64,000 bases of DNA, from positions 672,001 through 736,000 of the forward strand of contig CAVUDW010000003.1 of the NCBI GenBank assembly GCA_963740355.1. The letters are read 5' to 3'. The notes under the pieces were generated by a model that made no database searches, was not told the origin of the DNA, and saw only the letters and a list, made by a program, of their open reading frames with translations. The DNA is from an uncultured Gemmatimonadaceae bacterium. Lineage in GTDB: Bacteria; Gemmatimonadota; Gemmatimonadetes; Gemmatimonadales; Gemmatimonadaceae. The position numbers and the translations under genes are program-made. Each line of letters starts with the position of its first letter. The stretch's first letter is position 1. Of the stretch, positions 13,362 through 14,555 are shown one piece after another.

Positions 13362-13407
13362 CACGCAGAACTGAACAGCCGCGGAACTGTAACTGCGAAA
13401 CGCAGAG
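13362..13407. repeat. REP-like element, left arm (IS110 target)
   Basis: ACGCAGAACTGAACAGCCGCGGAACTGTA...AACGCAGAG, with inverted counterparts at 14714-14740 and 14777-14816. Confidence 0.7.
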
Positions 13408-13422
13408 TAGCTGTGTTGAAAG

Positions 13423-14358
13423 TCAAGCCGTGGCGGGCGTGGGGGTCCGCCACGGTGTTTGCGTTTTGACCATCGCGTTGAGGATGGTGAGGAGGCGGCG
13501 GAGGCACGCGATCTTGGCGACTTTGGTGGGCTTCCCGGCGGCGCGCAGCGCCGCGTAGACGGGCTTGAGGACCGGATTCCATTGTGTGGCCACATGGGTG
13601 GCCATGTAGAGGATCGAGCGAATCGTTGCCCGCCCGCCCCAGCACACGCGGGCACCGCGGAATTGCCCGGATTCCTGCGCGAGCGGCGCGACGCCCACGA
13701 GCGCGGCAATGGCGCGCCGATTCAGCGTCCCCAATTCGGGCAACAGGGCGACCAAGTACCGTGCGCTCTGCTGGCCGATGCCCGGCACGCTCGTCAGGAG
13801 CGTCACCTGCGCTTGCCAGGCCGCATTCCGTTCGATCAGTTCGCCGATCTCATTGTCGATGTCACGCAGCGCCTCGGCGAGCGCCTCCAACGTCCCGCGC
13901 ACATTCGTCGCCACGCGCGCGGTCGCGACGTGCAGGCGATTCTTCTCCATCGTCTGCATCGTGACCAACTGCCGGCGCCGTTCCACCAAGGCCGCCAGCG
14001 CCTGCTGCTCCGCGTCGGCGAGCGGCCGGACGGGTGGGGCGAGCACGGCGCCAAACCGCGCCAGGATGCGCGCATCCACGCGATCCGTCTTCGCCAACTG
14101 GCCGGTGCTGCGCGCGAACTCGCGCACCTGCCGCGGATTGACGACCGCGACGGGGATCCCGGCGCCGGTGAGCGCGCCGGCGACGGCGCGATGATACGTG
14201 CCCGTCGCTTCCAGCACGACCAAGGTCGGCGGCTGCGCGGTGAGCGCGGTGACGAAGGCGTCGATGTCCGCCGCCGTATTGCGGAGCTGCGTCACCGCAC
14301 CGTCGTGGACCGCCACATCCAAGTGGGCCTTGCTGACATCAATGCCGAGATACGTCAT
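13423..14358 (-). CDS. IS110 family transposase/recombinase (DEDD RuvC-like plus Tnp domain)
   Basis: [27 protein letters not shown] and GVAP..QESG. RBS GGAGG precedes ATG 14358. Confidence 0.96.
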
Positions 14359-14361
14359 ACT

Positions 14362-14540
14362 GCCTCCAGGTGACGACCGCGCGCGCCCTGCCTTGCGAGA
14401 TGCGGGATCGCGTCGGCGTCCCTGGTAGCTGTCCGGGCTTGTAGCGATCGGGACGACGGCGCTCTGACTCTGCGACGGGCTCACGGCGCCCGGGGCGCTC
14501 CGAACGAGCTGCCGCCGTCCCGGAGATTTAGCTTCTGTGC
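14362..14540 (-). ncRNA. Putative bridge RNA of the IS110 element
   Basis: Target-binding stem-loop 14450-14521 carries CGCAGAG and GCGCC. The donor-binding loop carries ACAGCTAC (14425-14432) and GCAAG (14392-14396). Ends are approximate. Confidence 0.78.
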
Positions 14541-14555
14541 GAGGAGACATACAAG

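Follow-up and report, generated by a model that had tools for sequence, protein, structure and literature searches.

A predicted IS621-type bridge RNA in an IS110-family element present in seven copies in a Gemmatimonadaceae genome

Organization of the element

The DNA analyzed here (referred to as the window) is a stretch of 64,000 nucleotides from contig CAVUDW010000003.1 of an uncultured Gemmatimonadaceae bacterium. It harbors at 13406-14555, on the minus strand, a 1146-bp element of the IS110 family which is flanked by a CT dinucleotide at both ends and comprises a 195-nt left end (LE), the gene of a 311-aa DEDD/Ser recombinase and a 15-nt right end (RE). Sequence analysis supports that the left end, upstream of the gene, encodes a bridge RNA of the IS621 type which matches the joined ends of the element and its repeat target, and it is very probable that the whole is an intact and probably active representative of the IS110 subgroup with a mechanism following that of IS621. 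An original prediction on this DNA had described a similar arrangement, and every feature that it listed is present at its position.

The features are collected in Table 1, in which RNA position p corresponds to window position 14554-p. The assignment to the IS110 subgroup follows from the lengths of the two ends, the left one being far longer than the right one. It agrees with the core dinucleotide on both sides and with the lack of terminal inverted repeats, as none of the 25 longest inverted pairs (of 30 found) connects both termini.

Table 1 Features of the element and of its flanks in the window, in the orientation of the element
Feature	Window position	Strand	RNA position	Remark
Left target flank, CTCTGCGC (one target-repeat octamer)	14556..14563	-		Left target guide matches its last four bases, GCGC
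Left CT core copy	14554..14555	-		CT on both sides in 7/7 copies
Non-coding left end, 195 nt, starting TGTATG	14359..14553	-		Encodes predicted bridge RNA
TATGTC, candidate -10 of circle-junction promoter	14546..14551	-		17-nt spacer from TTGACT across joined ends
Predicted bridge RNA core (target- and donor-binding loops)	14382..14522	-		Leave-out covariance model
Target-binding loop module	14449..14522	-	Outer stem 32-43 and 45-48 with 90-105; bulged A44	Helix 1
Predicted left target guide core, GCGCC	14494..14498	-		Sense of last four left-target bases and core C; would pair with bottom strand
Inner hairpin of target-binding loop	14476..14492	-		Minimum free energy fold; helix 2 of consensus
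Predicted right target guide, CGCAGAG	14468..14474	-	80-86	Reverse complement of core CT and CTGCG, 7/7
Predicted handshake guide of target-binding loop, UC	14466..14467	-	87-88	U pairs with donor position 7 (A); 1/2 paired
Donor-binding loop module	14385..14438	-	Outer stem 116-119 with 166-169; inner hairpin 132-135 with 147-150	Helices 3 and 4
Predicted left donor guide, ACAGCUAC	14425..14432	-	122-129	Last 7 nt of right end and core C, 8/8
Predicted right donor guide (discontiguous), AU (14401-14400) and GCAAG (14396-14392)	14392..14401	-	153-154, 158-162	Pairs with CTTGTAT
Predicted handshake guide of donor-binding loop, GC	14390..14391	-	163-164	Complementary to target positions 6-7 (GC), 2/2
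GGAGG, ribosome-binding site of recombinase	14363..14367	-		Read from sequence
Recombinase gene, 311 aa and stop	13423..14358	-		ATG at 14358, TGA at 13425-13423
TTGACT, candidate -35 of junction promoter	13421..13426	-		Overlaps TGA stop codon
Non-coding right end, 15 nt	13408..13422	-		Ends in ACAGCTA (13414-13408), the left-donor sequence
Right CT core copy	13406..13407	-		CT on both sides in 7/7 copies
Right target flank, CTGCG, TTT, CGCAG	13393..13405	-		Small hairpin whose 5' arm is the right target

The recombinase carries the Pfam domain pair DEDD_Tnp_IS110 (PF01548, the RuvC-like DEDD domain; E 1.3e-26, 93.7 bits against a cut-off of 29, residues 4-143) and Transposase_20 (PF02371), the Tnp domain (E 2.1e-15, 57.3 bits against a cut-off of 21.3). 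Its best relatives of solved structure are the transposases of ISCro4 (PDB 9t56, E 1.2e-35) and IS621 (PDB 8wt6, E 5.8e-33). At the protein level, the ISCro4 match extends over residues 3-303 with GIDVS, EAT, KTDxVDA and ESG in both proteins, and the IS621 protein is distantly related (phmmer 118 bits over about 300 aa). D7, E50, D92, D95 and S230, the last within QESG, are aligned to D11, E60, D102, D105 and S241 of IS621 (paper numbering, to which the deposited chain adds 2), which form the composite active site as described in the text of Hiraizumi 2024 (PMC11208158).

Genomic copies and target sequence

The host assembly (G000; 5.45 Mb, 65% GC) contains seven copies of the element. Five show 100% identity over 1150 bp, and the other two are at 98% and 96%. 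All seven start with CT-TGTATG and finish with ACAGCTA-CT, the CT-bounded ends that had been proposed for the window copy, and all share the target GCGC-CT-CTGCG. Upstream of the core, GCGC is common to the seven copies, within CTCTGCGC in six and within CACCGCGC in the seventh; downstream, CTGCG is again common to all and is followed by T in six copies and by A in one. In public data, the four best sequence matches are contigs that break at 13399 and 14563, the ends of the element together with the flank common to the copies. The empty target proposed earlier also exists, as the reconstructed 17-nt site has two exact unoccupied occurrences in the genome, and its 15-nt core, CTCTGCGCCTCTGCG, has 13 unoccupied occurrences against 0.04 expected.

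Two to four CTCTGCGN octamers stand in tandem at the target, which is the last of their junctions; 3' of them come a small hairpin (CTGCG, 3-4 nt, CGCAG) and then runs of GCAGTT-like 6-7-mers. This repeat family is intergenic and in the window spans 13320-13405 and 14556-14860, the flanking genes being convergent and ending at 13319 and 14860. The description of the site as a repetitive extragenic palindromic (REP) target was thus roughly right, because the target belongs to an intergenic repeat family beside a small hairpin and the element lies between two convergent genes; it was imprecise in missing that the insertion occupies the last junction of the tandem CTCTGCGN array. An octamer pair is also present in inverted orientation at about 14712-14735.

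Structure and covariation of the left end

The left end folds with a minimum free energy of -91.8 kcal/mol (z = -2.2 against shuffles), and the fold includes the stems that had been described for it. Relatives were sought in one genome per species (about 185,000 species representatives), whereby 154 were found and 80 loci kept. Left ends with a recognizable CT-TGTA boundary numbered 49 and were reduced to 38 non-redundant ones; 26 of these loci were aligned with the window element. The remaining 12 left ends, of gammaproteobacterial type and far more divergent, were kept out of the alignment and later tested by covariance model.

The RNAalifold consensus of the 27 left ends has the layout of a bridge RNA, with two modules, each built of outer stem, internal loop and inner hairpin, and the bulged A of the first stem is invariant throughout. 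The outer stem of the target-binding module (14449-14460 / 14511-14522; 12 nt, 92% complementary) shows a compensatory change in 11 of 13 pairs. Over the four helices, 94.8% of 675 cells are paired and 18 of 25 pairs have compensatory changes; none of 500 shuffles reaches any of five pairing or covariation measures, and in a control with the partners slid by 1-3 columns pairing falls to 36-48%. The four helices are kept by compensatory changes, and the constraint therefore acts at the RNA level.

A covariance model was built from 25 orthologues, leaving out the window element and its nearest relative. On the 64-kb window it gives a single match (14382-14522 on the minus strand, 71.1 bits, a rough E of 2.2e-14, model positions 1-136 of 136), and on the whole genome it matches exactly the seven copies. 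Among the related loci it yields 83 matches in 81 of 87, including gammaproteobacterial ones outside its training set; in at least three of the six loci without a match (L027, L029, L066, L074, L081 and L093), the upstream sequence is too short. In a scan of 13000-15000 against Rfam 15 with E up to 10, four chance-level matches were obtained, none in the left end, and Rfam may hold no such family. The two covarying modules together with the leave-out match sustain the IS621-type layout that had been proposed.

Before 2024, the ends of IS110 elements were customarily regarded in another way, in which the matches in the left end would be DNA-level subterminal repeats bound by the transposase and its structure merely a 5' untranslated region regulating translation, with no guide RNA. 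The position of the left end immediately upstream of the gene and its ribosome-binding site would suit such a role. We consider this explanation highly improbable. The compensatory changes in the four helices speak against it, as do the solved structures of two relatives, ISCro4 and IS621, which show an RNA-guided complex. Segments matching the target would be purposeless inside the element as transposase-binding repeats, and the sense and antisense pattern of the guides, along with the cross-pairing of the handshake nucleotides, follows the RNA-DNA geometry of IS621 exactly, as set out below for the bridge RNA reading.

Predicted guide segments and their cognate sequences

The geometry of IS621 is described in the texts of Durrant 2024 (PMC11208160) and Hiraizumi 2024 (PMC11208158). 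The left target guide (LTG) and left donor guide (LDG) are of top-strand sense and base-pair to the bottom strand, and the right target guide (RTG) and right donor guide (RDG) are antisense to the core and the right half. According to the same texts, the LDG has 8 nt and stops at the core C, and a G-T pair occurs once in the discontiguous RDG. Immediately 3' of both RTG and RDG there are two handshake nucleotides, which once strands have been exchanged pair with the opposite substrate at positions 6-7 and must leave their own substrate unpaired.

Each of these segments has a counterpart in the left end (Table 1). The perfect reverse complement of core and right target that had been proposed, CGCAGAG, is confirmed as the predicted RTG, and an extension beyond 7 nt was dropped, as U79 would pair only with the A found at one of the seven sites. 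The eight-base match to the left donor was likewise found as claimed, with 14425-14432 holding ACAGCTAC when the window is read for that segment. For the right donor, the pairing of GCAAG with CTTGT through one wobble exists, and the AU part of the guide had been overlooked; with the geometry of the IS621 structure (as given in the text of PMC11208158), the RDG pairs at 7 of 7 positions over CTTGTAT with one G-T pair and three bases looped out, and its A153 and U154 are nearly invariant in the left-end alignment A1. The handshake guides had been overlooked as well, and both they and the AU are consistent with the IS621 model. When the 195-nt left end was shuffled 200,000 times by mononucleotides, 5,506 of the shuffles contained the 7-mer of the RTG, 419 the 8-mer of the LDG and 12 both.

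The comparison with the orthologues adds covariation between guides and flanks. Left flanks were read directly from the loci, and right ends were placed by the motif TTGA[CT]-N7-ACAG, successfully in 22 of 27. Among the 22 orthologues the RTG is fully Watson-Crick paired (7/7) in 17, with 6 pairs in three and 5 in two, and 17 distinct right targets are represented. Over the five non-core positions the cognate mean is 4.68 against 1.74 for 450 non-cognate pairs, of which 0.2% reach 5. The LDG pairs at 6-8 of its 8 positions in all 22; donor positions 5-7 occur in five forms (CTA, CTG, TTG, TCG and ATG), and the LDG matches each of them, bar one mismatch in L057. In every one of the 22 orthologues, the handshake base of the target-binding loop (TBL) is complementary to donor position 7 (20 with C:G and two with U:A), and the two U:A cases are the window element and L008, the sole two whose donor ends in A. 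The donor-binding loop (DBL) handshake base pairs with target position 7 in 26 of 26 (G:C in 22, A:T in three, U:A in one). The forbidden pairing with the own substrate occurs in 0 of 22 for each of the two guides.

In one Dehalococcoidia chromosome (L017, L027, L033 and L065), the second base of the right target, immediately 3' of the right-hand CT core, is C, A or T among the copies (GCT, GAT or GTT before TCTGAC), which suggests that the RTG tolerates a mismatch there.

Candidate junction promoter and signs of activity

Joining the right end to the left end would place TTGACT at 17 nt from the weak candidate -10 TATGTC, an arrangement that fits the circle-dependent promoter of IS621, for which the text of Durrant 2024 (PMC11208160) describes a sigma-70 promoter rebuilt across the circle junction. 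In all 21 orthologues with a defined right end, TTGA[CT]N stands as far from the core as TTGACT does here, and 11 of them carry the better -10 TATCTT. In the integrated locus, a promoter scan gave no promoter-like site on the strand of the element. On the opposite strand, a promoter-like site (CTGACA, 17 nt, CATACT; 9/12) lies antisense across the recombinase start at 14333-14361 (+), possibly for an antisense transcript or by chance.

The recombinase frame is open in all seven copies, which together with the five identical copies indicates recent activity. Compared with the window copy, the 98% copy has 21 changes in the 936 nt of the coding sequence, with 2 amino-acid changes, and none in the 195 nt of the left end; the 96% copy has 43 changes in 936, with 9 amino-acid changes, and one in 195, situated in the inner-hairpin loop of the donor-binding loop. 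From these counts (0 and 1 against 21 and 43), the left end is more constrained than the synonymous sites of the gene.

The left target guide and points against the reading

Several observations weigh against the reading of an active, RNA-guided element, which is weakest at the left target guide. At the position homologous to the LTG of the relatives, the RNA reads AGCGCC-C and pairs with GCGC and the core C, five contiguous pairs, as had been claimed. The C at 14493 (RNA position 61) stands opposite the core T, where most relatives carry U. The target loop has 3-4 nt more in its 5' strand than that of 25 relatives, as it does in L008. GCGCC is a common word in a genome of 65% GC, and the left end alone has it at three positions (56, 65 and 92), so that by itself it says little. 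In the junction promoter, TATGTC has three of six matches to TATAAT and is without the final T, and in the 98% copy (L006, G000:C3:1839928-1841077) the -35 reads CTGACT, a change that is synonymous in the last sense codon and could weaken the promoter without altering the protein. E-values of a home-made covariance model are rough. The ends of the orthologues were verified by copy-versus-copy comparison in seven multi-copy families only, the first four LDG positions are not independent evidence because right ends were placed by the TTGA[CT]-N7-ACAG rule, and the orthologue counts overstate independence because the orthologues are related to one another. The labelled public runs with the sequence are sediment metagenomes, with no RNA run listed among them.

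What lends support to GCGCC is its position, homologous to the LTG of the relatives. Among 26 orthologues the median contiguous run of the LTG is also 5, with a cognate mean of 4.46 against a non-cognate mean of 2.26, and the copy with a different upstream flank (CACC instead of CTCT) differs precisely where the guide leaves bases unpaired. The specified target amounts to about 11 bp, GCGC-CT-CTGCG, split 4+2+5. The original prediction had suggested that, with its short match, this site may be an insertion of relaxed specificity; this is not supported, since all seven copies sit at GCGC-CT-CTGCG and a run of 5 equals the orthologue median, and the short match is thus a property of the guide and not a lax event at this site. 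A longer or bulged LTG pairing through the extra 3-4 nt of the 5' strand was also considered. By eye, no register suits both the window element and L008, and the flanks of the seven copies differ at those bases, so the candidate was dropped.

A genuine IS110 member that is now silent or crippled, with a poorly matched or weakly expressed bridge RNA and with copies that are relics of a past burst, would account for the five-pair LTG with its mismatch at the second core base, for the weak -10 and for the mutated -35 of one copy. We hold this to be improbable, as five copies identical over their whole length imply recent movement, all seven frames are open with the catalytic residues intact, and synonymous sites have changed more than the left end. 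Moreover, the LTG run is the median among relatives, and in IS621 the LDG likewise leaves the second core base unpaired, as can be gathered from the texts of PMC11208158 and PMC11208160.

Proposed mechanism and comparison with known systems

For the active, RNA-guided element, the following course of events is likely by analogy with IS621. The element would excise as a circle, and the joining of RE and LE across the CT core would set the -35 TTGACT 17 nt from the weak -10 TATGTC, giving a junction promoter from which the left end would be transcribed into a non-coding bridge RNA of about 170 nt. The DEDD/Ser recombinase would bind this RNA. Its donor-binding loop would read the joined ends ACAGCTA-CT-TGTAT, with the LDG ACAGCUAC on the bottom strand and the RDG AU..GCAAG on the top strand, and its target-binding loop would read GCGC-CT-CTGCG, with the short LTG GCGCC on the bottom strand and the 7-nt RTG CGCAGAG on the top strand. 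After exchange of the top strands, the two handshake guides would pair with the opposite substrate, and recombination at CT would insert the element at the last junction of the tandem CTCTGCGN repeat, beside the small hairpin.

IS621 of E. coli, the founding bridge RNA system, shares with the window element the Pfam domain pair and the aligned DEDD and Ser catalytic residues, the CT core, a long LE starting with TGTAT, a short RE containing ACAG, the lack of terminal inverted repeats, an LE RNA with target- and donor-binding loops, and a target within an intergenic palindromic repeat. Going by the published texts on IS621, the likeness extends to the 8-nt LDG ending at the core C, the discontiguous RDG with one G-T pair and the handshake guides directly 3' of RTG and RDG. 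As for the differences, the same texts give ATCAGGCCTAC as the IS621 target, in place of GCGC-CT-CTGCG; it too has about 11 bp but is split 7+2+2 and not 4+2+5, and it is read by a 9-nt LTG and a 4-nt RTG, against 5 and 7 nt here. The IS621 LTG is described as pairing with the left target and both core bases, whereas here the second core base is left unpaired by the LTG. Compared with the IS621 RNA as described there, the target loop here has 3-4 additional nt in its 5' strand and the RDG loops out three bases instead of two. The donor left half of the window element, ACAGCTA, differs as well. The IS621 donor string given in the original prediction has no occurrence in the text of Durrant 2024, whose figures or supplements may contain it.

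The IS1111 subgroup has the same recombinase family and RNA-guided logic, as the text of PMC11208160 describes, and differs in a long RE carrying the RNA and in subterminal inverted repeats.

The proposal of an intact RNA-guided recombinase orthologue with donor and target unlike those of IS621 is thus supported by sequence, structure prediction and comparison. Such an element is well supported and at the same time unsurprising, an ordinary member of a kind described in 2024, because IS621 had been shown to have a bridge RNA and 85.7% of IS110 elements were already predicted to encode one, according to the text of Durrant 2024 (PMC11208160). The current picture of IS110 biology is unchanged by it. 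What it adds is a well-documented natural bridge recombinase with a predicted guide map, a natural target set and 26 aligned orthologues, the closest relative being 60% identical. In practical terms, it is a candidate orthogonal bridge system with a natively long RTG and with handshake guides already right for its own donor and target.

Possible determinants of site choice besides base pairing

The biological value of the element lies in its 7 occupied and 32 unoccupied matching sites within one genome, which bear on what beyond base pairing decides where an IS110 element lands. The 32 unoccupied GCGCCTCTGCG sites comprise 10 outside the repeats, 11 internal octamer junctions (three of which adjoin a copy of the element) and 11 terminal junctions, the latter with a full CTGC..GCAG hairpin in five cases and a partial one in six. 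All seven occupied sites are terminal junctions. The full hairpin is present at 6 of these 7 against 5 of the 32 unoccupied sites, with a one-sided Fisher p of 0.0009 against all unoccupied sites and of 0.0055 against the repeat-associated ones, small numbers in both cases.

Selection against insertions in genes accounts for part of this pattern. The empty internal junctions might point to an extra determinant, possibly like the target stem-loop of ISPpu10, a suggestion in which our confidence is low. In that element of Pseudomonas putida, a stem-loop of the natural target adds specificity beyond base pairing, a 'sequence-structure dual match' in the wording of the preprint text (bioRxiv 10.64898/2026.03.19.712850). 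Both are IS110 elements with a target hairpin, here at 6 of 7 occupied and 5 of 32 unoccupied sites. The stem-loop of ISPpu10, as that text presents it, extends the target on its 5' side, is rich in GC and has been put to experimental test, whereas the hairpin of the window element lies 3' of the cut, includes the right target, and rests on a small count which selection could also explain.

A more specific and similarly doubtful idea concerns the window element together with its Gemmatimonadaceae orthologue, in both of which recognition may be weighted to the right half, with a 7-nt RTG, a minimal LTG sparing the second core base, and a target hairpin supplying the missing specificity. Specificity supplied in this way would account for seven insertions at the last junction, next to a hairpin, while 11 equally matched internal junctions are empty. 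If true, it would be a natural case of structure-gated, asymmetric bridge-RNA targeting, unlike IS621.

Relatives and further observations

The closest relative, with 60% amino-acid identity, comes from a Gemmatimonadaceae metagenome-assembled genome (loci L008-L010), followed by Dehalococcoidia, Binataceae and delta-proteobacterial metagenome-assembled genomes at about 50% and by marine gammaproteobacteria at 36-41%. In L008-L010 the donor ACAGCTA-CT-TGTATG, the RTG CGCAGAG and the U handshake guide are the same as in the window element; the target loop is likewise longer in its 5' strand, which has CC at the position of the core, and the targets too are CTCTG(C/T)G-type repeats. Their LTG differs, being GUGGCC and not GCGCC, and matches left targets of the form G(T/C)G(T/G/A)C in the three copies seen. 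Matches were obtained in 16 of 40 related genomes, 19 of the 40 belonging to the same genus, and the best full-length one has 53% identity, so that among the genomes searched the element itself is found only in the host assembly. Many of these genomes are fragmented assemblies, which together with the sediment-metagenome runs agrees with a lineage that is environmental and little cultured.

One other IS110-family gene of the host assembly, for a different transposase (PF01548, 78.7 bits), lies outside the window at G000:C3:1718792-1719271 (+). The bridge-RNA covariance model R1 has no match near it, and the gene may belong to another subgroup, with an RNA that is different or differently placed.

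Two copies of an orthologous element lie side by side in each of two other genomes, head to tail about 8 nt apart in L068 (529-670 and 1763-1904) and head to head about 65 nt apart in L014 (121-256 (-) and 321-455 (+)), which probably reflects arrays of target repeats. In L047 and L051, which belong to a Dehalococcoidia orthologue, about five tandem repeats of a ATGACCACTGGGACA-like 15-nt unit lie between the bridge RNA and the start of the recombinase, and in some copies they extend the left end or the N-terminus.

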